The position numbers and the translations under genes are program-made. From NCBI GenBank assembly GCA_964634945.1, contig CAZWMG010000001.1:116825-180824 (forward strand): a stretch of DNA of 64,000 nucleotides, written 5' to 3'. The notes beneath the pieces are model-generated. The model was not told where the DNA came from, made no database searches, and saw nothing but the letters and a program-made list of their open reading frames with translations. Each line of letters opens with the position of its first letter. Position 1 is the stretch's first letter. This stretch comes from an uncultured Planctomycetia bacterium. Lineage in GTDB: Bacteria > Omnitrophota > Gorgyraeia > JABMRG01. Below are positions 14,592 to 62,900 of this stretch, in pieces.

Positions 14592-15398
14592 GGGACACTC
14601 TTCGCAACACATCTATTTGCAATATGTTATACACTAATTAATTTAATAATCGACCTATATTAAAGGATTTACAATGATTCGTATTCCACGCAAAGACCAA
14701 ATTCAAGACACTCTTACCTACCACATATTCAATAGAGGTAATGCCAAGCTGGATGTTTTTCATGATAATAAGGATTGTGATTATTTTATTGGGCTCATAA
14801 AGACCTATGAAGATAGATTTAATTTATATATATACAATTGGGTCTTAATGAAAAATCATTTTCATTTTTTAGCATGCATTAATAATCCAAAATTTTTATC
14901 CAAATGCTTGGGGGGACTGCAGCAAGCATATACACAGTATCATCACAAAAAATGGAATAGCGCAGGTAGGTTATGGCAAGGAAGATTTAAGAGTCAACCG
15001 ATTCAAAATGATAGATATTTCTTTGAGTGCGGAAGATATATAGAAAGGAATCCAATGCGCGCCAAGATAGTTAAGCTTCCATGGGATTATCAATATTCTA
15101 GTTGTAAATTGTACTCATTAGGAATATCGGATTCTATAACAACGACAAACCCTGGTTATAATTCCTTTTCAAACACAATAGCTATAGAATCTCGACAAAG
15201 CGAATATAGGACATGGTTAATGAGTGGGGAGAATCGGAGTTTTGTCAACATGGATAGACCTGTAGGAAATGAAGATTTTATAAAAGGCTTATTGAAAATT
15301 AATGGTCGTCTAGTTGCAAAAAAGGCAAGACGTTCATTCAAAAATTAGTAGATTACTTAGTTCATAACTATCTATGAAATAAGCAGTTAAAAAGAGTG
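14588..15398 (+). mobile_element. REPtron-like unit: RAYT/IS200-family Y1 transposase gene bracketed by 13-bp inverted repeats
   Basis: AAGGGACACTCTT at 14588-14600 and its perfect reverse complement AAGAGTGTCCCTT at 15386-15398 flank the CDS at 14674..15348. Confidence 0.55.
14674..15348 (+). CDS. REP-associated tyrosine transposase (RAYT) / IS200-like Y1 HUH transposase
   Basis: YHIFNRGN...F, HUH motif MKNHFHFL, GRLWQGRFKS, RYIERNP, catalytic-region Y in DYQYSS. Characteristic of PF01797 RAYT proteins. Confidence 0.75.
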   Translation: MIRIPRKDQIQDTLTYHIFNRGNAKLDVFHDNKDCDYFIGLIKTYEDRFNLYIYNWVLMKNHFHFLACINNPKFLSKCLGGLQQAYTQYHHKKWNSAGRLWQGRFKSQPIQNDRYFFECGRYIERNPMRAKIVKLPWDYQYSSCKLYSLGISDSITTTNPGYNSFSNTIAIESRQSEYRTWLMSGENRSFVNMDRPVGNEDFIKGLLKINGRLVAKKARRSFKN

Positions 15399-15403
15399 TC
15401 CCT

Positions 15404-22421: not shown

Positions 22422-22497
22422 TGGTGCCCCTACCGCGACTCGAACACGGCCACATGGTTTAGGAAACCACTGCTCTATCCATCTGAGCTATAGGGGC
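22422..22497 (-). tRNA. tRNA-Arg (anticodon CCU)
   Basis: Manual fold: acceptor GCCCCUA/UAGGGGC, D-stem GCUC/GAGC, anticodon stem GUGGU/ACCAU with loop UUCCUAA, T-arm CCGUG-UUCGAGU-CGCGG, discriminator A, encoded CCA. Confidence 0.85.
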
Positions 22498-32059: not shown

Positions 32060-32487
32060 ATCCTTTTTAATATCTCCTGCTCCTTTTTTCGCATCTTAAG
32101 CGCAGACCTAGAAGACGTATCATCATAGCCCAATAGATGCAATATGCCATGTATAATATAAAGTGACAATTCAATAAAAAAAGTATTTCCGTAACGTCTG
32201 GCATTCTCAAATGCTTCAGAGGGGCAAATTAAGATGTCGCCTAGATAGCCCTTGTGTATATCGCTGGTCATGGAATCATCATAGCCTAAGGCTATAACAT
32301 CCGTTACGCGATCCTTACAAAAATACCTGCTGTTTGCTTTTTTAATTCTGTATCTTGTAACAAAACTTAAAGCTACCTGTGTCTCTTCGGGCTGCCCAAG
32401 AGCTTGAAGCGCCTTAAAAGAGATAAGCTCGATCTTTTTTTTATTAAGCTTAATCTTTTTTTGAGCGTCTGTTATTATTATTCTCAT
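32050..32487 (-). CDS. ybeY: endoribonuclease YbeY
   Basis: HGILHLLGYDD (H-x3-H-x5-H zinc motif). Confidence 0.8.
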   Translation of the reverse strand: MRIIITDAQKKIKLNKKKIELISFKALQALGQPEETQVALSFVTRYRIKKANSRYFCKDRVTDVIALGYDDSMTSDIHKGYLGDILICPSEAFENARRYGNTFFIELSLYIIHGILHLLGYDDTSSRSALKMRKKEQEILKRICG

Positions 32488-34732
32488 ATTTTTTAAGCTT
32501 ACTATCAGGATACTCTATGCGTGAATGATAGGTAGCCGTAAGAACCCTTACAAAACTTTCGGCGATTTTATCAATATCTCTAAGCGTAAGATTGCATTCA
32601 TCAAGCTGACGATCGATAAATTTATTATTAACAATTTTCCGCACTAACTCCTTGAAATGTTGTGGTGTTGGATTCTGTAAAACACGCGAAGCGGCCTCCG
32701 CGGAATCCGCCAACATGACTATTGCCGATTCTTTCGTCTGCGGTTTGGGGCCGGCATATCTAAATGCCTCCTTACTGATAGATTCATCCTGACGCCTCTT
32801 TTCGAGCGCCTGATGATAAAAATACGTTACAACGCTGGCGCCATGGTGTTGTTGTATTATATCTTTTATGGAATTGCCTAGTTTATATTTCTCCGCAAGC
32901 TCAACACCATCTTTGACATGGTTAGTTATGACAAGCGAACTCATTGACGGAGAAAGTCCTTTATGCATATCCTTAAGTTCCTTCTTATTCTCAGCAAAAT
33001 ATTCTCCTTTTTCAATCTTACCGATATCATGGTAGTATGAGCTTATGCGGCAAAGGAGTGAGTTCGCGCCAATAGCATTTGCGGCGGTTTCAGCAAGGTT
33101 TCCAACAATTATACTATGGTGGTATGTGCCAGGAGCCTTGGTTACCATATCCCTTAATAAGGGGTGATTCAAATCAGCGAGTTCAAGCAATTTTATATCC
33201 GTAGTAAGCTTAAATAGATACTCCAACACAGGAAGAAATATCATTACAATCGCCGCTGAGACAATACCATTGGCGATACCCCACAGGCCTTGCTTTAGGA
33301 ATATATTAGGTTCAAAATTGGATATTATTCCTATGGCTGAGATAGCTATAAAATTAATTACCCCAACATAGAGCCCTGATCTTATAATATGGCTGCGTGA
33401 CCTCGCGTTAAAAATAGTACAGATTGCGAAGATGCCTCCAATCATGGAGACAAAGAATATGCTGAATTTTATACCAGCTATCAAGGTTACTATTACAGCG
33501 GCAACAACAACCACAATCGCCGCTACCCTACCATTTACAAGCAGCGTAATAAGCATAGAGACTACAGCAACAGGTATAAAATAACTAGGCAGTGGGGAAG
33601 AGACTATGAGACGCGCGGATAAGGCTACAAAGACTATCAACAAGCTCATCAATAACAAAAGCTTATCTTGTGAAAATATGCAACGCTCAAATTTTTTCAG
33701 ATAAATATATAGTATAAATATCAATAAACACATAAGAGTAACCATGCCCCAAAATTGGGAGAAGTTATCACTTGCGGCAGCCATAGTACTGACTACATCA
33801 ATCTGGGCAATGTGCTCTTTAGCGATCCTCTGTCCTCTTCTCACAACTATCTCGCCCTTCGACCTAGATTCTGTAATATAGATAGGCGTAACCGCGGAAA
33901 TGGCATCGCGTTTCGCGGAATTTGTCTCATCCTGGTTAAGCGCAAGGTTAGGTTTTACCCAATTCGAAATAAGCTTGTACAGGACATTTACCTGCTTTTT
34001 CCCTTGCATGCCATCGCTTAAGAGCAAAGGCTCTATCTTATCAAGTATGGACCCATCGGTACTTATGCTAGCTACCTTCTCATCACTCTTTTTTCTAGTA
34101 AGCCTATTGTATATTATAATATGTTCGCTTCCCTCTACGCGTAGAGCCTTTTTCATCTCTTGCGAAATAATAGGGTACGAATATATTGTCTGCAATGTCT
34201 CTAAGGCATATGACTGAAGTTTAGGCGTCTTACCTGACCCTAATAATATATCTGTCTCGTCCTTGTCAAGGTTTTCCTTAATCTTATTAAGCAACTGCTC
34301 CAGTTCGGCTGTATCATGTTCTTCTTCCGTAACAGATACCAGTTTTCTATAAGAGTCTAGGAGTATAAAAAATTCCTTTGCCTCTGACTCAGCGGATTTA
34401 AGCACCTTGTCATCAATGCTATATACAGGAATTATCTTAGCTTCAGCCGCGTCCTGATATGCCTTTGTCTTCTCTTCATCGACTCCTGATTGGTACTGAA
34501 AATCAAACGGGGCATATATATCCGCTACCGCGATATCGCCCTCATTAAGAGCTCTCCTGATAGGAAGTTTTGCGGAATACATAATACATATAATGATAAA
34601 GACGATAAAAACAGCGATCAGGACTCTTTTTATGGCCTTTGAAACCATCTGCTGTTTTTGCTGTTGTCCTGTATTTAATGAATTACCTAAATTTCTGATC
34701 CTAAATAATGCTTTTTTTATAAGTGGGGTCAT
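32450..34732 (-). CDS. pgpH: 7TM-HD (HDIG) membrane phosphohydrolase, PgpH/YqfF-like
   Basis: N-terminal extracellular region, 7 TM helices, C-terminal HD domain (HHSIIVGN...YHDIGK). Conserved pgpH-ybeY-dgkA order. Confidence 0.75.
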   Translation of the reverse strand: MTPLIKKALFRIRNLGNSLNTGQQQKQQMVSKAIKRVLIAVFIVFIIICIMYSAKLPIRRALNEGDIAVADIYAPFDFQYQSGVDEEKTKAYQDAAEAKIIPVYSIDDKVLKSAESEAKEFFILLDSYRKLVSVTEEEHDTAELEQLLNKIKENLDKDETDILLGSGKTPKLQSYALETLQTIYSYPIISQEMKKALRVEGSEHIIIYNRLTRKKSDEKVASISTDGSILDKIEPLLLSDGMQGKKQVNVLYKLISNWVKPNLALNQDETNSAKRDAISAVTPIYITESRSKGEIVVRRGQRIAKEHIAQIDVVSTMAAASDNFSQFWGMVTLMCLLIFILYIYLKKFERCIFSQDKLLLLMSLLIVFVALSARLIVSSPLPSYFIPVAVVSMLITLLVNGRVAAIVVVVAAVIVTLIAGIKFSIFFVSMIGGIFAICTIFNARSRSHIIRSGLYVGVINFIAISAIGIISNFEPNIFLKQGLWGIANGIVSAAIVMIFLPVLEYLFKLTTDIKLLELADLNHPLLRDMVTKAPGTYHHSIIVGNLAETAANAIGANSLLCRISSYYHDIGKIEKGEYFAENKKELKDMHKGLSPSMSSLVITNHVKDGVELAEKYKLGNSIKDIIQQHHGASVVTYFYHQALEKRRQDESISKEAFRYAGPKPQTKESAIVMLADSAEAASRVLQNPTPQHFKELVRKIVNNKFIDRQLDECNLTLRDIDKIAESFVRVLTATYHSRIEYPDSKLKKYENNNNRRSKKD

Positions 34733-34819
34733 CTTTTACGCCTAACTCCTTGTATGCTTTTTAAATAACATAGTCCCTATACCATTTCGAAAAAAGTGAG
34801 AAATCTTAGCCAACAAAAT

Positions 34820-35030
34820 TAGATCCTTCGTCGCGCCACTTTCAGTGGCGGAACTCAGGGTAAATTCGCTTATGTCATTCTGGTCACGTAATGCCGCCTG
34901 CCCGCCTACGGCGGGAAGAATCTAAGTCTGAATCCTTCGGATACTTTGTATCCTCAGGATAAATTCGCACTTATAAGTTACGTCGCTAAAGCTCCCTGCC
35001 TCGCCGGCAGGCGGGCGTAACTTATGTGCT
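34820..35030. repeat. tandem degenerate ~105-bp duplication containing GC-rich hairpins in an AT-rich intergenic region
   Basis: Unit 1 34820-34924 and unit 2 34925-35030 share ATCCTTCG, CAGG(G/A)TAAATTCGC(TT/AC)TAT and GCCTGCC...GGCGGG blocks. Hairpins cgcgccact-ttc-agtggcg and gcccgcc-tac-ggcggg. Confidence 0.6.
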
Positions 35031-35033
35031 CAT

Positions 35034-35699
35034 TTATTTGATATATTTTGATTCCGCTTCCTCAAGATCCGGTATAATTAGAACCGTTCCGGGCAATACA
35101 GTGCTGGGGTCTTTAAGTTTATCAGCGTTTGCCTCATATATAACTGTCCATTTGGATGCCTTATCATAAAAAGCTTTGGCAATATGTGAAAGCGTATCAC
35201 CTCTCTTAACCGTATACTCCTTGTATGCAGGGCGAATGGCCTCTTCTTCATATAATACTACTTCATCATCGCTGACAACCTCTGCCTCGACCTCTTCATA
35301 CTCATAGGCCATCACCGCATCGGTTGTTATATTGTCATATACAGGCAGGTCTTGCTCATTAACATTACTGGTGCTGGTCAGATAGCCCTGATTTCCTGTC
35401 ATATCAGTGTCGCTTGTAATTCTTTTGCGGGCTGGCGGCTTTGGCTTACTATCCTCTTTCGCAGGCTTGGCATGGATCTCTTCCCATGTAGGTAATTCAA
35501 TTTTTATATCAATATATTCTCTGTCAGCAGGCCTTGGCTCTTGAGCAGTATCGCCACTATTGCCTGTCAGATAACCCTGGTTGCCGGATACATTCTGGTC
35601 AACCCTCTCTCTGACAACCTTCTTTACGGTAACGCAACCTGTGAGCGATATTGAAGCTACCGCTACCAACAATACGATAATGTTTCTTTTCATCTGCAA
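35034..35699 (-). CDS. LysM domain lipoprotein
   Basis: Lipobox SLTGCVT. Internal duplicated GNQGYLT motif. C-terminal LysM (YTVKRGDTLSHIAKAFY...LPGTVLIIP). Confidence 0.6.
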   Translation of the reverse strand: MQMKRNIIVLLVAVASISLTGCVTVKKVVRERVDQNVSGNQGYLTGNSGDTAQEPRPADREYIDIKIELPTWEEIHAKPAKEDSKPKPPARKRITSDTDMTGNQGYLTSTSNVNEQDLPVYDNITTDAVMAYEYEEVEAEVVSDDEVVLYEEEAIRPAYKEYTVKRGDTLSHIAKAFYDKASKWTVIYEANADKLKDPSTVLPGTVLIIPDLEEAESKYIK

Positions 35700-48697: not shown

Positions 48698-48724
48698 AGG
48701 CTTTTGTTAGCACTCTTATCTAAT
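48698..48724. promoter_or_regulatory. CIRCE operator (HrcA binding site) in the groES leader
   Basis: Perfect consensus TTAGCACTC-N9-GAGTGCTAA. About 25 nt upstream of the groES start codon. Confidence 0.9.
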
Positions 48725-48788
48725 GAGTGCTAATTAGTTTTTGCTATCATTTCCCTTTGAAAAATGGGATTTTGTTTGAAGAAAGTGT

Positions 48789-48816
48789 ATATTACCAGAT
48801 TTTCTGAACTTGTCAA
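48789..48816 (-). promoter_or_regulatory. sigma-70-type promoter for groESL
   Basis: Minus-strand TTGACA (plus coordinates 48811-48816), 16-17 nt spacer, TAATAT (48789-48794). CIRCE lies just downstream in the leader. Confidence 0.5.
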
Positions 48817-48950
48817 GTATTATTTTTGCATAATTTACGCGAAAGGAATGAGAGTAAATTATATGCAAAAATTATATCCTGAGGATGCAAAGCATCCGAA
48901 GGATCTCAAGCTTGCATAATTTACGCGAATGAGATAAGAGAAAATTATAT

Positions 48951-50558: not shown

Positions 50559-50948
50559 TTAATAGGCCTTATCCGCTATCTTATCGATAAGATCCCTGTC
50601 TCTTTTTTTTATCTTTTCGAACTGCGTTGCTATAAAACATATCTTCGGATAGGAATCTTTTTGTGGTTTCTTATTGCGGATTACCCTGCCGATACATCTT
50701 ATCGTATGCGCGGAAAAAGGAAATATAATTTTAAAATTAACCCGCATACCTGTTGTTAAATCATCATCGTAAGTAAATAACATGCCGCCGGCGCTGAGGT
50801 TACGCACTGTTACTATATCCCACTTACTAAAACATCTCCTGATGAAAACAAAGCTTACAGTCCTAAACCATGACATAAAACTTCTCTCTATCCTCCTATG
50901 TTTTCTCTTCTCCTCCATGACATACCCCCCCTTCGGTTGAATATCCAT
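50559..50948 (-). CDS. PilZ domain c-di-GMP receptor
   Basis: RRIER (RxxxR) and NLSAGG (NxSxxG). 129 aa. Start codon 21 nt downstream of the giant-gene stop. Confidence 0.6.
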   Translation of the reverse strand: MDIQPKGGYVMEEKRKHRRIERSFMSWFRTVSFVFIRRCFSKWDIVTVRNLSAGGMLFTYDDDLTTGMRVNFKIIFPFSAHTIRCIGRVIRNKKPQKDSYPKICFIATQFEKIKKRDRDLIDKIADKAY

Positions 50949-50968: not shown

Positions 50969-53900
50969 TTACGCGTTCTGTGCAACGAGATCATTTATTC
51001 TCTTAATCTCATCATTGTCTATAGGCTTAATCCTTATTGTCCCTGAGCCTGAATTCCCAAACATTGATTCCCAGTTTTCATTCGATATACCAATTTCAAT
51101 ACCTCTCTCGTTCATAAACGCGGCAAGTTGTTTAAATGGCACGCGGAATATTGCCAATACTACCTGTGATGCTGTCACTATATTATTTGCCGTACCAGCA
51201 GATTGTTCAACCTGTACGAATCTTGTCTGATCAGCGGTAATGGATGCAGGCTTATTGTAACGATAGACAATAGTAGCAGTACTTGCTTTCTTGAGGCCGG
51301 TTGTTACTGTTATGCCGTGCTCCTTAAGTTTACTTACTGCCTGGGCACTATTATCGCCATATACTGATATAGATACAGTCTCCTTTACATTATTAGGCAT
51401 CTTATTTATTATAACACCTAATGTCTCAGCAAGCATATCTGTAACTGTATCTGATTCCAGTACAAGAGCCTGTCCTGCTGTTATAGGCAGCTTGTAACCT
51501 TGTGTAGTAACTGTGTTAACAATATTTACCGCTGTTTGCGCTGTATCAAGGCCAAATTCCGAAACGTCAATAATGATGCCGGCAGACGCGCTCTTTGAAT
51601 CCGACACAGGCTCTGAACCGGTCTGTGTATATGATAGGCCCTTTTCAATGAGGCCTGAAGAAGACTGTTTCAATATATCTGGCGATGGCTTCTCTTCCGG
51701 ACTAATCTTAGGAGCATCGGTCGTTGTTGTTTGAGATACCGGTTCCTTACTACCTGATGTAGCCGCTGGCTGCTGTGCGTCTTCTCCCTGCTCTTTGCCT
51801 GCAGCAACATCTAATGCCTCGATATATGCCTGCATTATGAAATTATTCATATTAATTAGCTGAACGGATAAAGGCACATCTCTAACAAACTGCTTTTGTT
51901 TTAGCACCCCTTCTTTTTTGAGCCTTAATACCTCTCTCTGCGCTACAGGCTCAGCTTTTGCTCTTGCCGCTGCCTGCTGTGTTGATTGCGCCTTAGCATC
52001 CTCTAATCCATCTTCTACTGGTAAATCCTTTAATGCTGCTTCATAAGCCTTGCTAACCTTTTCTGCGGCTTTTGATAACTTAATGAACCTATTGAAAGCC
52101 CCATCAACTGCTTTTGGATTACCTTGGCTTGTTTTGTCTAATAATCCTGCGGCTACAAGCTGTGGCACAATAGCCTGTCTTGCTTTAATAGATGCCTTAT
52201 GCTCTTTCATATCGTAGCTTGGTTTTATGTTAAGAATATCTGAGAGCAGAGATGTAATCGCTGTTCTCATTTGCTCAGGACTATACTTATACTCACCTTT
52301 TACATCTTTTATACCATTTGCGATCTTCTCCTGACTATTTTTAAGGGTCTCTACAGCTTCCTTATATTCATCAGAAGCATTACCTGAGACTGCCTGATCT
52401 TCAAACTGCTCTATGGACTGCTCAACAACCTCCTCAATTATCTCATCAAAGGTCTTTCTGGTTCTAATGCCTTCTTCATTCACGTTAGTAAATGTATTTA
52501 ATCTGTATGCGTAATGGCCTTTGGCACCGCCCATCGAGTTAACGGTCTTTTCTCTTAAATAATCTACAGTCTCAAGGAACTCAGGGCTATCGTATAATAT
52601 CTTTGACATAAGCCCATCTACAATTATCTTATTCTTTATTTCATCCGCTAAATCTTTAGACAGAGAAGTAGTGAGCCATGATATCTCATCATTAAAATGT
52701 GAAAGTTCATGCAGCATCTGCTCCAGTATTAGCCAGCCGGATGCAATCTTACCGCTGGTTGCATCATGGTCTATCGCTGCTTTTGCGAATTTTATAAAGT
52801 CTCTTGATAGAGCTATTGTTGGCCGCGCTACTATGTTGCCTTCTTCGCTAAATATTACTACGCGCTCTGCCTGAGCCTTTTCAGCTACTGAACCGCCTGC
52901 TGTCTTCTTAACCATTCTAACCACAACACCATCCGGAGAGCCATTCTTAGCTGCATCCATTAGCACATCAAATAACTGTGTAAGCTCTTCACCGTTGCCT
53001 TTTTTTGATAAGTAATCTTTTATACTATCCATAGAACTGAAGGCAACATTTAATGCGTTAATAAGCTCCTTTATATCTCTTCTTGCTGAATTAGAAGATA
53101 TTGTCAGCTTATCACCTGCCCACTTTACTAGCACAGAATCAGTTGCTGTCTGCGCAAAGTCCCTGTAGACCTTTTGGACCTCTTCATAAAATCCTGATTT
53201 CATATCCAGGTTAGCGAGATGTTTTTTCATAAACTCATCTATATAAGCATCCTGGTTGTTAACCTTGTCCAATTTTATATCATGATACAACTCTGTTAGA
53301 TTAGCCTCAATATCCGCTTCATTAGCGCTTGAACTTCTTGCCTTTAAGAAACTTGTAATCCTAGCGTTTATATCTTTAACATTCAGATTGTGTATACTAA
53401 TATATGCTTTAGCATAAGAGGTTGCCGCTTCATTAAGTTCCTGATTCTTCTTCAGTAGGGGTTCCACAATCAATTCTAGTTGTTTATTGAGCTTTAATAT
53501 TTTAGCCTTTATTACCATGGATCTCTTCTTATCAACATCATCATCTAAATCAAGGGCCTGCAACTCTTCTTCTAGTGACTTCTTCTCTCTCTTAATGCGG
53601 TATATCTTTGACGCAAACAACAAGCGCTCTCTTTTTTTCTCAAGTTTTGTCTTTGCTCTTGCGTACTTAAGCGTTGCATTTGCCATGTCAAATAATTGGT
53701 CATTATCCGCGAAGGCATAGCTATCTTCTGTAAGCATCCTTGTATTATCAATATCCTGGGCAAATTCAATAGATATCGCTGCCTTTATCGCCAGATGAGT
53801 CATAACATCATCTCCCGCTATATCGCTTACCATTATGTCTATCTTCTCATCGGAGGGCTTTGCGACCTTAAACATTATTTGTTTAGCTCTAAATCTGTTC

Positions 53901-56900
53901 TTGAGCATACGTAGAGTCTTTTTAAGCTCCTTCTTCTTAGACTCTTTCTTCTGCTCCGCTATCCTATACTGCGTGATTGCTATGCGTTCCTCTAAATCAT
54001 CTATAGCGACCTTTCTTCTTAAATATTTAAGGAACTTTTCATTGCTCTTTATATCGCCTTTGTTATACGCAATTACCAATGCCTTTGCGAATTCTCGCCT
54101 TGCTGCTAAAGGTTCTTCTGTATTTAACAATGCCTTCTTAAGGTTTGTTTGAGTAAATTCTAAGCCCGGGAACTTTTTCTTCAAAGCATTATACTCTTTA
54201 GCAATCTCATATAAGCCATTAGCGTCAAAATCTTTTAAGGAGTTGCTTGTTCCTATTAGGCCTATTACGGATACTGCAATAGAGGCCTCAGAATCATCCT
54301 TTATGCTGCGGTCGTTATCCTTAAGCATCTTAACTATCTGCTGAAACTCTTCCGGCGGAAGCGCCATCTTAAGAGATATAATTTTTATAGCTACCTCAAG
54401 CACCATCATGCCTCTTACTGTAAGATTGTTATCATTATCCACCATATCGTTATCTCTCATAAATCTTACTAATTGCCCAACTGCAGCATTAGCATCTACG
54501 CTAGCATTAACAGTCCCTTCACCTTTCGCGCTCTCTATATCATCCTGAGCATCTTTTATAGCTGTTTTAAGAGCGATCTCAACCTCATCTACTGTAAGTG
54601 TTCTTTCCTCAACATCTTCATCCTGTGCTTCCAGAGTTCTTGCTGTACGTGCCTGGGCAGCTGTCAGGGTCTGCCTAAACGCTCCGGCAACATCGCCTGA
54701 GAACGATGGCAGTACATAAGGGATAAATCTTCTTGCGGCATTATAAAGCTCTGAATACGTTTCAGCATCCTTAAATGTACTCTCATATGCCTGCCCGGAC
54801 GACTTTCTCAGTATCACACCCTCGTATTCCGATAACAATGGCTTTAGTTCTCTTTCGACAATCCTTATTGATTCTGCTGTCTTAACAGATTCCATATCCT
54901 CCATAAGAGACTTTATAAATTCGACCCCAATGCTTGCGTTAGTATTGAATATCTCAGTTATCAGGGCCTCTGCATCCATAGGCTTATCCAATAGGTCGAG
55001 TGCCGCACTGCGCTGATCAGACTGCTTATCAAGTAGCTTAAGCAGATGCTTCTCAAGGACCTTTCCTTCTGATGTTTGCGCAGTCTCCGGGTTTTCGCTT
55101 CCGTATTTTCTAAGTAGATTTTTAGCTGCCTCAACAAGATAACCTTGGGCAACATCTGTTATAATGTAGGCATTTGATTTTGACATTTGTATAGCGCCTA
55201 CAACCTTAAGCATAAGCTGGGTAGCGGACTGAAAATCATTCTCAATAAACCCATCTATATCATCCTTAGAAGACGCGAACTTATCCAGAAGAGTCTTTGT
55301 ATTCTTAAATTCATCATTCTGCCTGTACTGTTCCGGTGATATCATATTGCTTAACTGAGTAAGGTTGCCCCTTAAGTACTCAAGGCGCTTTTTAAGAGAT
55401 TCTTTATTTACATAGATTACTCTTGTCGCTATATCTGATTCTGAACGTTGCACACGATAGAGCCCCTGTAGTAACAGATCTTCCGCAAGCTCATCAGCAA
55501 CTATATGTATATCAACATCACCGTTATAGTTTAATCCTATCAGGCCACCTTCATTTATGAATACAGCGTGTCCTCTTTGAGCCTGTTTTGCTATCTCATT
55601 TACATCGCCATCCTCATTAGATGCTACTATGTTATTCTCATCTTTCACAATGTATTTAACAATATCTTTATCCAGCCTATTCTGATCAGCGCCTAGGGCT
55701 TCTATCAGATCTTTTATGTTCTCTTCCTTTCGTTTCATGTTTGGATCATTCTTATCAAGTTTTTCTATCACAGAATTCTGCTCATCTATAATGCGTTGCA
55801 GCTTTTTATATATAGCATCTCTTAATCTCTTTCTTAATATGTCATCCCCCTTAATACGTCTTTCAAGCTCTTCCTGAGTACGCTTTCTCATATCTTCGTT
55901 AGCTGTATATATCGCGACACCACCTTGAGTGCGAAGCGACTCTATAGCACCGCTTACAATCTGGGCAATCAATACTTTTTCATCAGCATATTTACAAAGC
56001 ATATGGCTAGGATGTATCCTACCAAAAGTCTTATTATCTATCTCTAACTCTCTATATTCGCTCATTTTTTCATTTGCACTAGCTATCGCGCCTGGAAGCG
56101 CGGAATCATCAACACCGACAAGGTCAATCATCTTATAAACTATATCATTTCCATCACTATCTTTCGTAAATACCGGTATCTCAGAGCGCTCGAAATCAAT
56201 CTCAATTCCTGTTACCGCAGGAAGCATAGCAATTACCTCAAAGAACGTTCCTGAGCCGCCGGCAACATGCGCTCTTGAATTCATACCAAATATCTCGCGC
56301 AAAGTTGACTGCATGTTTGTCGCGTTGTAGGTAAGGCCTGTTACTAAGATCTCTTCATTATCTGTTATCTGCCTGTGTAGTTCTGCTATAGCACTATCGT
56401 CATCTGTATCATTTATGTATTTATTATGCTGTAATGCTATTGCTATAACATAACCCATATCCTGAAACATAGATGAATACTTTGCCCTGCCTTGCCCAAC
56501 AGGTACAATCTTCTTATCAGCTGTTACAAGGTAATCCTGCCCAATACGATGGTTGAGAGCCCTTAACACGCTCTCAACCTCAGACAGTTTAATGCCTTCC
56601 TTGGTAAGCTCGTTCTGAAGTTCTCTTGACGCATAAACAGCATCAAACTCTCTGTCATAGCATACCGCCATACCTGTATTCCTGTAGTTGCTTTTAAATA
56701 ACTCGACATCTCCTTTTAAATCTCTTATATTTAACTTCTTACCTTTCTTTGTCTCTAACACGCCTCCTTTAAATATCTTAAATATTTTCTCGATAGCCTC
56801 TAATTTCTCAGCTGTAACCTCTTTTTCAGCAAGACCACCTTCAATAAATGTATCTCGAACTTTCAGCACGCTATCAAATTCATCAATCCTTAAGATGTTT

Positions 56901-59900
56901 GTCTTAGCAACAGCGTTAAACAACTCATCATTTTCCGCATGCGCTATAGTATTCTGTAAATGGCCTCTTGCTTCACGGCTTATTATCACTACCTGATTAG
57001 GATCATTAAACGCCTCTGTTACCTTCTTATACGCGGCCCTCTTTCCTGCTTTTCCTTCTGCGGATGCATTTTTGAAATCATCTATCAGCTTGTCGCCGCT
57101 TACCATCTTAAGGCCAAAACCATGCAACAAGGTATATTGTGAATGCTCTAAGCCTTTATTTCCATCATCCTTATCAGATAGTGGATTTAAATACTTATCA
57201 ACTGCCTGCGGGCTTTCTAATATCACCATGCCAGCGAGATCGTTGCCTTTTATCAGACTCTCTATACACATCTCTGCTGCAAAAGCATATGTTTTACCGC
57301 CTGCCATTGATAAAGCACCGAATTTTCCTTCAAATAGACTCTTGATAAACTTCTGTTGCTTTGCACGTAATCCGATCTCCTTGTTGCTTAACGCTGACTC
57401 TCTGGCAGCAAGTAAATTAGCGATAGCAAGTCCAAATGCCAGCGCCTGAACATCATCAGTCGCGTGTTCTGTTTCATCTAGTTCAAGACAAGCTTCTTCA
57501 ACCTCATTTCTATTGCCTTTTATATCTGTCTTTGTTATTGTCACGCTTAGGCCTGTTGCGATATCTTTTACGCGATCAACAAAAGCCTTATACGCATCTC
57601 CTGAGCCCTCTGTAAGATTTTCGTATTCAACCTGTTTTTCATTCAGCTCAGACCTTCTCTCATTGATCTGATTCTGCAAAGTTGCAGCTTCTTTCTCTTT
57701 CGCCTTTTGCAGTGTCTTATTGCCATCGTTCCTTGCGCTTATTATCTCTTTTTGCAATTCATCAAAACTGGCAGTTAATTCGCTTATACCCTTTGCCATG
57801 TCTGCCATCTGATCTTTGAACAATACTATCTTCACTCTTGACTCACTATGTTTGCTGTCTGCTACATCAAGCAATTCCATTGCGCCGGAGGCTTCTTTCT
57901 GCACTGCATTCACAATAGCCTCTCCTGCTTTTTCCACAAAATCGTTCTGCTCCGGTGTTAAGGTTCTTGTTAGCTCAAGTTTTCTCAGCATCTGTTTTAT
58001 GAACTTGTTGTTAAATTGCTGATAGAATCTTCTCTTTTCAATTATCGTTTTCTGCTCATCTTCATTATTGGTTAGGCCTGCTACTATATAATCAAAGTCA
58101 TCCTGTCCGGATTCTGTATGTATCATTGCCTCGTAAAGGGCCTGACGTAGTATGTTCTTAACATAGGTATCTAATCTGGCAAAATCGAGGAATGAATCGA
58201 GCGCTGAATTTATATTAATATCATTTGCAGGCGAGGCTGCCTGAACAGCTGCTGCATTATCTATTATAGACTTCAGTATGGCTGATGTAGCTCTTGGATT
58301 ATTTTTGATAACCTGCACATATTCTTCAAATGACTCAAGCTCTAGCTCCTTCTTGGTTTCGCCATTAGCTTTAAAGCTATCTACCAATAGCCTGCTAGCT
58401 CTAGCAACGATCTCTTGTGTCTCTTCTTCAATTTGCGTAACTGTTTCCAGAGCCTGTTTTGAAGCTATCTCTGAGTCAACGTCTTTTAATGTACCGCTTA
58501 ATAACGCTTGCTCCAACATGTCTATACGATCAAGCGCATCAGAATCAACAAGCGATTTAAGATCTTTCTTATTCAATACGATCTCTTCAGTGAGCTGTTT
58601 TAACTCAACCAGAGACGCTAACCCGCCAAATTCAATCTCTGCTGTGTCTAAATTGATCTTTGATATCTTTTCTACCGCAATATCCGCAGCTTGCACTATA
58701 TTTTTGACAGATTCAGCTAAAGATGCCCTGGCTGCGTTATGCTTAATATCTTTTGCTGCCTTTGCTACGTTACCTATGACACCGGCTGCTGAAGTCGCGA
58801 AACGCGCATTGTACTGTGGAGATAGCTCAACATCTTGGCCGCTATCCTCTACAGAGGTAGTCATGTTTAAAGTGGTATTCGCGAATATGCTTCTTAAGCC
58901 TGTGCGCGTATTATCGATATCTACTTTTAGTGTCTTTATGTCTGATGCTGATGCATCGAGCTTCTGCTTCATTTGAGGCAAGGCCTGCTCTAATGTTGAT
59001 AATGCTAGCTCCATCTTTGCAGCAGCGTCAACCAGTTCTATTTGCTGCGCCTTAGTTGCTGTCTGTGAGTCTATAGCTTTTGCCTGAGCCGCAACCTGTT
59101 TAACAGCAACCTTTACCATGCCCACTGTTCTTGCCTGCGTAAGCTCGCCTGCAAAGGTCTCCTGAGCAGCATAATCCTCATATACACCTGCTATGCTTTT
59201 CTTTGATGCCTTATTAATAGATTCACACAGCTTTGTAATATTATTAGCCACCCTGGTAGCGCTATCTGTAAACTGCTTAACTGAAACACCAACTGATTTA
59301 CCATCAAGCACATCTGAAATCTCAACTACAAACTCCTGCAAACCTTCAGGCATCCAACTTAAAAACAATCTTGCCAGTATGACCTCTTTTATTGCCTCTT
59401 CATATATGCCGCCTACTATTCTACTTGAAAAGCCTCCCAATTTTCCCAACATAGTTGCTTCTGGTGCCTCAGCCAAATAAGCAAGCTTACCCTGTATAAA
59501 GCTTGATACAGCGCTAAATGATTTCGCGATAATCCTGCCTATGGTCTGAGGTAACCTAACTAGTGTTAGAAAAGTAATGGCATTAAGCGCGCCGTTAAGA
59601 AAGCTTCCGCCACTTATCGCACTTTTAAGAGTGGAATCTGCTGTGATACTAAACTTCATTGCCCAAGATGAACTTGTCCTTGCTGCAACATCCTTAAATG
59701 GGCCTGATACTCTATTTGATGTAAAGTTCGCTATCCTATGACCCAGTGCAACTAGGGCAGGGGAAAGAGCAGTAAATACCGCTGTAAAGAGTATTCTTTG
59801 CGGATTCAGGTTTTCAGCTAAGGCGTTAAGCACCGAACCTTTACCCATCTGTCGCATCGTTCCATAGATGGTTTTTAAGGCACCTGGCCTCATATTGGCT

Positions 59901-62900
59901 ACAAAATCATCTGTTATGCCAAACGTGTTAAGCCCAGCGCTTGCCATTGAACCTGCTAAATGTAATGATATGCTCATGCCATATGTCAGGTTCCAGACAG
60001 TAGCTATACCATGTTTGTACATATGTTTTGCCCATTTAGTTGAAAGGCTTGCGACTACTTTTGATGCCGCAATCAGCCTCTGAGAGGCTGCAGCCATTAT
60101 GCCTTCACCGGCAGCTGCCTTTGTTACTGCAGAAGCTACCTTTGTTGATGCTGTAGTTATCTTTGAGCCAACATAGGTAAGTGGTTTTGCCGCTATATTG
60201 AGGATTTTTGCAACAGCCTCAATAGACTTAATGCTACCAATTGTACGAGCTATAGAGGTAGTAGCTTTTAGCGCTATGTTTAAAACAGATTTAATGCCTC
60301 TTAATATGATCCCTCCCGCAGCAAGAAGCGCTATATCAATTAACATCTCTGCTCCTGCCAATGTATACTTGTAAGTGCTATCATTTTGTATCTTATACAT
60401 ATCATCTATGCTCGTTACAGTAAAATCTACATCAAAACTTTCTCCGTTAAGCAACGAAGCAACTGAGGCAGCAACATAGCCAATAGCAGAACCAAGATGA
60501 TATACTGCCCAGGAAACAGCAGCGCCCATCCTATATGCGAATAAGGCGCCTTCGCTAGCTGAATCCAATACGGATTGCTGGCCTGTACTAATATCGATAG
60601 ATGTCATCTGATATATAGTTTCGTTATTACCTGTAATATGCTGATACCAGTACTTTGTCTCTATGCTTAGACGTAATATGGATGTATCGGCATCATAACT
60701 GATATTGGCATTATCCTGGCCACTTGTAATAATAAAGCTATCATCAGATGTTCTTGTTGCTGTAACAAGCTCCTGATTGCCCTGCATATCAGTTAAAGTC
60801 TGCGAAGCTGTTATAAGCACGCCATCTCTTATATATGTGTAGCTCTTTAGCATTCCTGACGAGGTTATAACGCCGGTTGACGATGAAACAGAATTTACAG
60901 TTACGTTAATAATATCATTAGGTATAGCAATATCTGCCTGCATAGCAACGTCACCGGTTGTTTCGCCTGATGATGAATATGTTGTAACCGCAATATTCTC
61001 ATCTATGTACATACCAAGAACATCTGCTTGTTCCAGTAACTGCAACGCATTCATACCACTTAATAGTTCTGTGCTGACCTTATCTATTTGATCCTGTCTA
61101 TCTTGTCCTGTTAGCATGCAATCATAAGTAGCATCAACATATACTTCCGCAATTGTCCTTTGAAGAGCAGGGACTATTGTAGCGCTATCTTTCTCGTTGA
61201 GCTCTCCTATTGTCAAACCTAGCGCACTTAAAGTCACGTTAGGTGTGCTTAGATTTATTGATAGTCTATACTCTTTGCCAGTATATGTAAAATCTGTTAT
61301 CTTAATTGTGTGCCCACCACTAAGAACTGATAGTGCCATTAGGCTATCAGGGCTATCTGATATGAAGTTTATAGTTACGCTCAAACCATCCTTATCAGAG
61401 ACAATACCCGCACCTTTTTCTCTTGCTGTCTGGAATTGAATATTATATGATACTTCTGAGTTCTGTATATTATTCAGATACTTGCCAAAACCATCTTGCA
61501 TATTTTGCTTCTTTGCATCGATGCGTGCCTTACAATCCGCTATCTGATCTTTATCATAAAAGTCGCTATCTATCAGGGTCACCATCTGCAATAAGCCTTT
61601 GATCTCATCTGTTAAGGCATCGACTTCCGCTTCTAAATTCTCTAAAAATATTTGATTCATACATGCGGCGATTTTATAGGCTGACCAGAGACCTTTATCC
61701 TCCGCATTAACTTTATTATTAGCTAATGATTCGCTTACAAATTCATAAGGATTGTCAGGATCATCCGTAAACCAGCTACCGATTCCTTTTTGAGATTCAT
61801 ACTCTTCAAAAAGTTTTGTAGAAGCATTAACCAGGCTCTGCATATAAACGCTAAGCTTTGCAAGCTGGGCCGGATTCATATCAGCCAAACCTTGGCCATT
61901 TTCAATATCAATAAGCCCCTGTTCTGTAAGCGTATTAAGAAAAGCGTTTATGTCGCTTTCATCAAGCTTGCCCTGCGCAATACCACCTGCAAGAAGAGCG
62001 AATAAAGCGCCTATTGTTCCTGATATCTTCTGATCTGCGGGATTGCAAAGTATAGGCATCACAACAAAGCTCTGCTCATATTTCTCTGAATCCTTGTCTG
62101 TGGTATTTTTATATTTATCTATAGTCGCTAAAATCTCCACCTTTTCTTGTGCATAAGCGGCTCTCTGGGCATCTGATAGCTCATCTGAATCTGCTCCCAT
62201 AAGCCAGTCCTCCTTAACCATTAAATCAACTTCTATCTGCGAGAGCCTATCCTCAAGTTTTTCTATTAGCACACTATATGGTATGATTTTAGAAGAATCC
62301 ACTGCCTGAACAGCTATCAGATCGTTATCGCCATCTTTACCATACATGATAGTCGTTGAAAGCTCGATAAGCATCGTTATCAGCTTCTTAGCAGATGCTG
62401 ATATATTGATGTCATTGAGATACTCTTGAAGCTTCTGTTTTGACACAAACGTAATGATAGTTTTTGTAGCTTTATTGTAGCCGAGAACAAAATCTGATAG
62501 TGACATGCTTTCATTATGCCACTGCTGTAATGTTATTTTAGCCCCTTGATAAGATATTTCAGAGGTAACATCCAGGTTATCTTTTACAATAAATATCTTA
62601 TTTGTATTTTCATTATATCCGGTGCCTAATCCTATTGAGATATCTCCATCTTTCATCTCTATCTGCGTAACACCCGCTGATAATACGTAACCACCTGATT
62701 TCAAATCTTCGGCAAGTACAAATCTTCCTTGCTTATTAAGCTCTATTGTGAGGCTAGATAAATTATCTGCAAAATTAACCTCTTTTCCGTCAAATATAAC
62801 CTTAAGATTGTCTTTTGAATTCTTATCAAGCTTCGTCGTAAACAATATTCTCTTGCCTGTTGTTAGTGTTACATTAAATTCTCTGCCTGCAATCTTTGCG

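Follow-up and report, generated by a model that had tools for sequence, protein, structure and literature searches.

We read the feature upstream of pgpH, with moderate confidence, as a small mosaic in which an intact copy of an interspersed double-hairpin repeat, REP- or MITE-like in kind and typical of Omnitrophota, stands beside a half-decayed one. This repeat was previously uncatalogued and has no counterpart in Rfam. Such a reading and a selected role of the repeat as an intercistronic RNA are mutually compatible.

The repeat units of the LysM-pgpH gap

The window (the whole stretch of 64,000 nucleotides that was analysed) holds the feature in a gap of 301 nt between a LysM lipoprotein gene (35034-35699) and pgpH (32450-34732, start codon at 34730-34732). 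The genes of this region all lie on the minus strand, in the order hisS, aspS, LysM lipoprotein gene, gap, pgpH, ybeY and a dgkA-PAP2 fusion, and therefore one should preferably read the unit in reverse complement to the letters given in the original prediction, which had described two tandem units of about 105 bp carrying GC-rich hairpins. The repeated blocks are all present: CTCAGGGTAAATTCGC at 34854-34869 recurs as CTCAGGATAAATTCGC at 34953-34968 (16 nt, 94%, spacing 99), a second block of 14 nt recurs at 79% with a spacing of 98, and ATCCTTCG is found twice with a spacing of 109. So are the named hairpins (pairs I3, I8, I10 and I14), including the perfect 10-nt ATAAGTTACG/CGTAACTTAT. Tandem Repeats Finder reported no array in the gap region, because the duplication is degenerate and short blocks alone are common to both units. 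On the minus strand, a stretch of 226 nt folds at -84.5 kcal/mol, compared to -60.6 +/- 4.2 for shuffled sequences (z = -5.7, 0 of 200 shuffles); the plus strand of the gap region gives z = -4.5 against shuffles.

Of the two tandem units, the first is a full copy while the second matches the family model in its 3' half only. Unit 1, the intact copy, occupies 35036-34933 on the minus strand (model alignment 34927-35036) and scores 78-82 bits with the models R1 and R2 (81.7 bits, E 1e-16). Its first helix, P1 (34960..35036, minus strand, drawn from the model alignment, covariation and the fold), reads UAAAU-GA-GCAC-AUAAGUUACG ... CGUAACUUAU-AA-GUGC-GA-AUUUA, so that from the base upwards there are five A/U pairs, the tandem G.A, four more base pairs, a bulge of 2 nt on the 3' side and a stem of 10 bp. 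The variable tip of P1 is a nested GC-rich mini-hairpin, GCCUGCC-GGCGA-GGCAGG (34983..35015, minus strand, pairs I7 and I13), in place of which the homologous copy of the relative L188 has a short GAGCAAAGCUC tip. The second helix, P2 (34933..34959, minus strand; pair I8, fold and model), comes directly after P1 with no linker and reads UCCU-GA-GGAUAC-AAA-GUAUCC-GA-AGGA. The TAA stop codon of the LysM gene (35034..35036, minus strand) is nt 1-3 of the element and forms the first pairs of the P1 base helix, as given by the ORF, the sequence and the start of the model alignment at 35036.

Unit 2, the decayed copy (34818..34925, minus strand; model match 34818-34908), reaches 20-21 bits (20.2 and 21.4, E about 0.01). 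What is left intact is the core GCGAAUUUACCCUGAG at 34869-34854 and a P2' helix, UUCCGCCACU-GAAA-GUGGCGCGA, then CGAAGGAUCU, down to 34821. In place of the P1 region there is a CCCGCC-GUA-GGCGGG mini-hairpin (34915-34901) along with unpaired sequence, and the unit closes with an inverted copy of the 3' end, UAGAUUCUUC. A decayed unit homologous to unit 2 is carried by the relative L120. Small CCCGCC-NNN-GGCGGG and GCCTGCC...GGCAGGC hairpins are found inside P1 tips or alongside the element, and L122 has the block GCCTGCCCGCCTACGGCGGGAAG in the opposite orientation to that of the window. Between unit 2 and pgpH, a spacer of 85 nt lies outside the element (34733..34817, minus strand), with the ribosome-binding site AGGAG at 34750-34746, then the pgpH ATG.

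With the models R1 and R2, three copies are found within the 64-kb window. The third lies near groES on the plus strand (48818..48909, 55-64 bits, E 1e-10 to 8e-12 with R1/R2), with the end of lgt on one side and the CIRCE operator and promoter of groES on the other, and is antisense to both lgt and groES. Its P2 is canonical, UCCUGAG-GAUGC-AAA-GCAUC-CGAAGGAUCU, and the base of its P1 has Watson-Crick pairs in place of the tandem G.A. After it comes an incomplete additional P1 arm in which GCAUAAUUUACGCGAA is repeated (48910..48950, plus strand; direct repeat 48828-48843 / 48912-48927), abutting the lgt stop codon; here, for the second time, part of the element is duplicated in tandem. The CIRCE operator upstream of groES-groEL is canonical, TTAGCACTC-N9-GAGTGCTAA, and the groES promoter, which directly abuts the third copy, is strong and sigma-70-like, TTGACA-16-TAATAT with a TG extension; operator and promoter occupy 48708-48734 and 48789-48816 on the minus strand.

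A family of double-hairpin elements

The family was searched for in the following way. The 16-mer GCGAATTTAYCCTGAG, a block common to both units, was compared with one genome per species. This gave 119 matches, of which about 25 had the whole architecture of 80-120 nt on the same strand while the rest were mostly chance matches in coding sequence. All 25 full copies begin with TAAATGAGC and carry the 5' UAAAUGAGC, both of which lie outside the query. The eight matches in viral contigs were all chance coding matches as well, and a phage origin was rejected. A scan of metagenomes with a 25-base pattern gave 54 loci, and the covariance model R1 gave 90 matches, 81 of them distinct by sequence and flanks (82 distinct alignment rows). 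According to the record names, the hosts are almost all Candidatus Omnitrophota, a few being labelled uncultured Planctomycetia or Verrucomicrobiota. Copies are many, with several to a contig, and occur in both orientations; their density is three per 64 kb here and up to three per locus of 6-13 kb elsewhere, two or three copies being found within a few kb in L065, L126, L137, L152, L154, L168, L170, L171 and L176.

The consensus of the 82 distinct sequences is 90-120 nt long and bears the tag UAAAUGAGC. Read in the sense of the genes, P1 opens with UAAAU-GA-GCNC and closes with GNGC-GA-AUUUA, and between the two lies a long variable hairpin whose 3' strand has a bulge of 2 nt; P2 abuts P1 with UCCU-GA-G, a variable hairpin, C-GA-AGGA, and then a UCU tail. 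The 3' end is GGAUCU, with variable bases after it. A tandem G.A is conserved in both helices, with regular pairs on either side, and together with the single-stranded letters UAAAUGAGC, GCGAAUUUAUCCUGAG and CGAAGGAUCU it is nearly invariant, even between hosts of very different G+C content.

The covariation check that the original prediction had proposed was run on these homologues, and compensatory base changes were found in the family. In the covariation set, 95% of the cells are paired and 24 of the 26 pairs have changes on both sides; the covariation score is 0.36, while shuffles give 0.10 and slid registers 0.03-0.05. Since the alignment had been fitted to the model, these counts are biased in its favour, and the search patterns had fixed the core letters of the copies. 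No such selection applied to the 5' nonamer and the CUUA/UAAG pairs, which are nevertheless conserved at 87-98%. Compensatory changes in palindromes can also arise from template switching, without any selection on the RNA.

We ran the Rfam scan which had been put forward as a first check, and nothing in it matches the element. With Rfam 15 at gathering scores, the sole match in the whole window is a tRNA, tRNA-Arg(CCT) at 22422-22497 on the minus strand, which is also the sole ARAGORN match; at E<=10, nothing relevant was found in 34650-35120. Nor does any Rfam family overlap the element in 8 Omnitrophota loci and 8 loci from other phyla, in gathering or permissive modes, and literature searches with its letters and on repeats in Omnitrophota brought up no account of it. 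The lack of an Rfam match does not refute the original prediction, because conservation is strong despite it: a real, structured and conserved element stands, while the pgpH leader, the terminator array and the duplicated small RNA which had been offered as its identity do not. The covariance model can be used for an abundant structured element, absent from Rfam, of a poorly studied uncultured phylum. When repeats of this kind go unannotated, they break assemblies, lead to small ORFs that are not real and look like regulatory RNAs when genomes are scanned.

Orphan P1 and P2 modules were found in other phyla, where P2 modules also occur as inverted pairs, sometimes forming long palindromes. P2-like modules without P1, (T)TATCCTGAG-hairpin-CGAAGGATC and also GTCATCCTGAG..., are present in G+C-rich genomes of other phyla (L132, L029, L167, L131, L001, L023 and L106), L132 holding, within 4.4 kb, four P2-like copies and a pattern match. 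Hairpin repeats with G.A may accordingly form a wider superfamily. Directly 3' of the element one often finds another recurrent module, (A)GATTGCTTCG-hairpin-CTCGCAA(T/A)GAC (L087, L116, L145, L156, L157, L170, L174, L176 and L188). In an Omnitrophota contig with the element (L101, 2051-2170, plus strand), we also noticed that Rfam gives PrrB/RsmZ below its threshold (35 bits against a gathering score of 44, E 1.5e-4).

Genomic context and possible roles of the RNA

We took the neighbourhoods of PgpH homologues as the corresponding loci of relatives, the identities below being those of PgpH to the protein of the window. At 93% (L120/L121), the TAA of LysM is followed by a homologous P1 with compensatory changes, decayed units, phoH and pgpH. 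At 84% (L122), there is only the 5' arm of P1, and phoH is missing. At 77% (L123/L124), the element is absent and one finds a 44-nt spacer and a split phoH; at 76% (L187), TAA-A-ATG joins LysM to phoH and the element is again absent. At 75% (L188), one clean copy lies right after the TAA, its P1 stems identical to those of the window; at the base of its P2, UCCU/AGGA has become UUGC/GCAA and the G.A pairs remain. At 64% (L189), the element is absent. In a tree of PgpH, L187 is the sister of L188, and L123 falls outside the group formed by the window, L120 and L122. To explain the filled, partial and empty states on this tree, one therefore has to assume that the element was inserted twice at one nucleotide or was lost precisely. 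Compared to the empty sites of L123 and L187, AAATG(A) is found at both flanks in L120 and L188, which is suggestive at these two loci only; no such flank duplication was seen at other copies.

The gene phoH lies between LysM and pgpH in relatives, is in two fragments in L123/L124 and is missing in L122 and in the window; hence it is being lost in this clade. In L120 and L188 the element precedes phoH, not pgpH, and it adjoins pgpH here because phoH was deleted in the lineage of the window. The 85-nt spacer before pgpH is the site of phoH in relatives, and tblastn found no remnant of phoH in it. We also observed that the aspS-LysM spacer of L188 (1655-1745) is filled by a perfect hairpin of 78 nt whose arms have 35 nt each (TGACCCTGTTTCCGTTCCAATCGGGACAGTGGG...); L187, L120 and L123 lack this hairpin, which belongs to a different family of hairpin insertions in the same genomes.

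These loci bear directly on the proposal of a tandem riboswitch-like or attenuator leader of the pgpH-ybeY-dgkA operon. The gap is strongly structured and lies upstream of pgpH, as such a leader should be, but the element is not specific to this gene: its 81 copies lie beside unrelated genes, it stands before phoH in L120 and L188, and it is lacking in L123, L187 and L189. Moreover, its hairpins are variable and have no conserved core resembling a ligand pocket, there is neither a terminator nor an Rfam match, and the AGGAG lies 70 nt beyond the element and is not paired with it in the fold. We consider this leader extremely improbable, and a false lead, that of a tandem riboswitch before a c-di-AMP phosphodiesterase gene, is thereby removed.

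For the 81 distinct copies, we recorded the nearest ORFs, the upstream ORF being of at least 150 aa. The upstream ORF has the same direction and its stop at nt 1-3 of the element (TAA) in 22 copies, its stop at nt 5-7 (TGA) in 4 copies and its stop further away in 6; it is divergent in 14 copies, 11 of them with the gene start at 20 nt or less. This means that the stop codon is shared with the upstream gene in 26 of the 32 sense-oriented copies. Of the copies flanked on both sides by ORFs of 150 aa or more, 19 have the orientation of both neighbours and 3 are antisense to them. The majority of copies are placed between genes of one direction, and for 17 of the 36 sense-oriented downstream genes the start or the ribosome-binding site is within about 35 nt (median gap 45 nt). 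Read from their flanks, copies sit inside rpsJ-rplC, rpsN-rpsH, rplL-rpoB and gyrB-gyrA and, twice, after groEL. The rpsJ-rplC copy is present in at least two lineages, with the C-terminus of S10, ...VEIK, in the TAA register versus the TGA register. The ORF opened by the AUG at nt 4-6 ranges between 1 and 250 codons, 32 of the 81 copies having 3 codons, and this variable length rules out a conserved small ORF of the MIRU type.

Since rpsJ-rplC, rpsN-rpsH and gyrB-gyrA must be co-transcribed, the element has to be read through there, which agrees with the absence of a U-tract after the hairpins on the gene strand of the LysM-pgpH gap. An array of terminators for the LysM gene would account for GC-rich hairpins standing directly after a stop codon. 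However, the only terminator-like site of the gap is on the opposite strand, no promoter for pgpH is predicted after the hairpins or elsewhere in the gap, and the same element is found inside ribosomal-protein and gyrBA operons. Such an array thus seems very unlikely. The lack of a promoter and of a terminator weighs equally on the idea of two tandem genes for an independently transcribed small RNA: the element is structured, conserved and multi-copy as one would wish, but it starts on the upstream stop codon and therefore leaves no room for a promoter, and it lies in both orientations directly against coding sequences. We can hardly credit a duplicated small RNA any more.

A different role for the RNA is possible, if rather doubtful: the element would be selected by the host as an intercistronic RNA, a punctuation of operons in the polycistronic mRNA, its repeat-like spread being secondary. 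It might possibly act as a processing site, as a stabiliser or as an uncoupler of the translation of neighbouring cistrons. As P1 includes the stop codon, the terminating ribosome would melt the A/U base of P1. In a processing role, the upstream mRNA would possibly end in P1 and the downstream mRNA start with P2; the exposed GA/AUUUAU resembles what we take to be the consensus of an RNase E-type site. This reading is favoured by the sense orientation in 19 of the 22 clean operon-internal cases, by the stop codon shared in 26 of 32, by a downstream ribosome-binding site which often comes directly after the element, by the presence of copies in essential, highly expressed operons, by the absence of a terminator and by the invariance of the unpaired letters and of the tandem G.A despite the differing G+C of the hosts. 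The sense strand also folds better than the antisense strand in 75 of the 81 copies. On the other hand, intact high-scoring copies are antisense to both neighbours in L135, L107, L161 and L178, G.U pairs are rare and symmetric between strands, the close relatives L123, L187 and L189 do without the element at the LysM-pgpH locus, and copies decay, part-duplicate and shuffle their modules.

Possible DNA-level maintenance and mobility, and known repeats

The pairing itself looks as if it were maintained at the level of DNA, as G.U makes up only 2.7% of the pairs and is equally frequent on the two strands of the whole folds (69 vs 71). A strand asymmetry of G.U, which would be a sign of selection on RNA, is weak among the modelled pairs (29 vs 18, p = 0.14) and absent over the whole folds. 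Copies within one lineage have stem sequences in common but exchange their tips, and one often meets partial or tandem duplications as well as inverted modules. Together with the antisense copies and the inverted pairs of P2-like modules in other phyla, this points to DNA-level maintenance and mobility. The tandem G.A, kept and not corrected, the better sense fold and the bias towards sense orientation point to a structure selected on one strand. The CUGA...GAA letters had suggested the core of a hammerhead or another ribozyme, which we rejected: the G.A lie inside regular helices and the core letters are missing. A kink-turn, which has a bulge of 3 nt just 5' of its tandem G.A, was also rejected, both G.A being flanked by regular pairs and the sole bulge lying 4 bp away on the other strand.

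We compared the repeat with known systems. REP sequences are imperfect palindromes of 20-40 nt tagged with GTAG or CGTC at one end, and their termini have been described as supplying stop codons to flanking ORFs (PMC3733652). Like REP and BIME, our element is short, extragenic, hairpin-forming and multi-copy, with compensatory stems and a conserved short end, and is co-transcribed and found in mosaics; like REP, it provides the upstream stop codon (in 26 of 32 sense-oriented copies) and its genome has a RAYT-like gene. Unlike REP, it consists of two different adjacent hairpins over 90-120 nt, has UAAAUGAGC as its tag instead of GTAG or CGTC and conserves a tandem G.A in both helices. Its copies are usually single and in one orientation, not inverted pairs as in BIME, and the RAYT-like genes that we examined are not flanked by it. 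MIRUs insert in operons, where they are tolerated because their ends fit the register of the neighbouring stop or start codons (PMC12548453). The element resembles them in its intercistronic position, in the codon register of its ends and in its tandem copies, but MIRUs carry a small ORF coupling translation, whereas the element conserves no coding, and they are not defined by hairpins.

With MITEs such as Correia/NEMIS of Neisseria, ERIC and RUP, the element has in common that it is non-coding, about 100 nt long, present or absent between strains (as seen between related genomes at the LysM-pgpH locus), co-transcribed and folded as RNA. It differs from them in that its ends, TAAATGAGC... and ...CGAAGGATCT, are not complementary and hence form no terminal inverted repeats, in that no target-site duplication can be demonstrated and in its conservation across a phylum instead of a genus. 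The miniatures derived from IS200/IS605 (PATEs) also lack inverted ends and have an imperfect hairpin near each end, strand specificity and, at the left boundary, a short sequence that is conserved; if the element can be excised precisely, as PATEs can, this would explain the empty sites. In the element, unlike in PATEs, P1 starts at the first nucleotide and is not subterminal, the two hairpins are dissimilar, and no parent IS with these ends was found in 1.38 Mb of loci. Integron attC sites, which are single hairpins in cassette arrays next to intI, were rejected: the core sites RYYYAAC / GTTRRRY are absent from the consensus and the neighbours are housekeeping genes. The double-hairpin elements or GC clusters of fungal mitochondrial genomes are likewise made of two adjacent small hairpins with conserved letters and are mobile in intergenic spacers. 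They are organellar, much shorter and unrelated in sequence to the Omnitrophota element. The term "double-hairpin elements" appears in PMC7218506.

The reading as a mobile repeat meets several difficulties. No enzyme is linked to the element, terminal inverted repeats are absent and there is no clear target-site duplication. The near-identical letters across a range of G+C, the 19:3 bias towards sense and the exact register of the stop codon fit a function of the RNA equally well or better, and a conserved, strand-specific G.A is not explained by simple maintenance of palindromes. In addition, the covariation comes partly from an alignment fitted to the model, with core letters fixed by the search.

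The obvious candidate for an enzyme would be a Y1/HUH transposase of the REP-associated type, one of which (224 aa, PF01797 40.5 bits) is encoded in the window at 14674-15348 on the plus strand, within a surrounding feature at 14592-15402. Its best NCBIfam match, NF047646 (REP-associated tyrosine transposase), is at 63 bits, below the cut-off of 80. A tblastn search of 1.38 Mb of loci with RAYT and IS200 TnpA query sequences gave this gene as the sole match. Its homologues are numerous, and every one whose source is named comes from Omnitrophota. The gene is bracketed by an inverted repeat of its own, GGGACACTCYTCRCAAC, of 17 bp (GGGACACTCTTCGCAAC / GTTAAAAAGAGTGTCCC), and the same 17-bp inverted repeats are found with the homologues of L190-L192. 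The double-hairpin element flanks neither the gene of the window nor its homologues, none being found within 2.5 kb of them in 7 loci (L190-L196), and neither an autonomous parent nor a split of the type P1...gene...P2 was found in the 1.38 Mb of loci. The gene sits between a comM-like gene and a methyltransferase gene, and its homologues are often on very short contigs.

As a mobile repeat, the element would spread or be excised as DNA, one strand probably being handled as a hairpin by a trans-acting enzyme which would read the G.A-containing helices. It may prefer, or survive at, stop-start junctions of the TAA / TAAATG(A) type, and we propose that it does so because it supplies a stop codon in two of three frames and brings no terminator. 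It would then be carried passively in the polycistronic mRNA as a structured spacer uncoupling two cistrons. More far-reaching versions seem unlikely to us: that it is a phylum-wide signal of operon punctuation, anchored on the stop codon and acting through the tandem G.A in processing or uncoupling, including in operons for ribosomal proteins, or a new single-strand mobile element targeting stop-start junctions (TAA/ATG, ATGA) between coupled genes. The register of the stop codon, the tandem G.A and the sites in essential operons make the element a tractable case for two questions, that of the harmless invasion of compact genomes by small repeats and that of the reuse of repeats by the host in mRNA processing.

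Elsewhere in the window, an ORF of 4279 aa (50969-63808, minus strand) has no Pfam match at E<=0.001, and it is followed by a PilZ-domain gene at 50559-50948.
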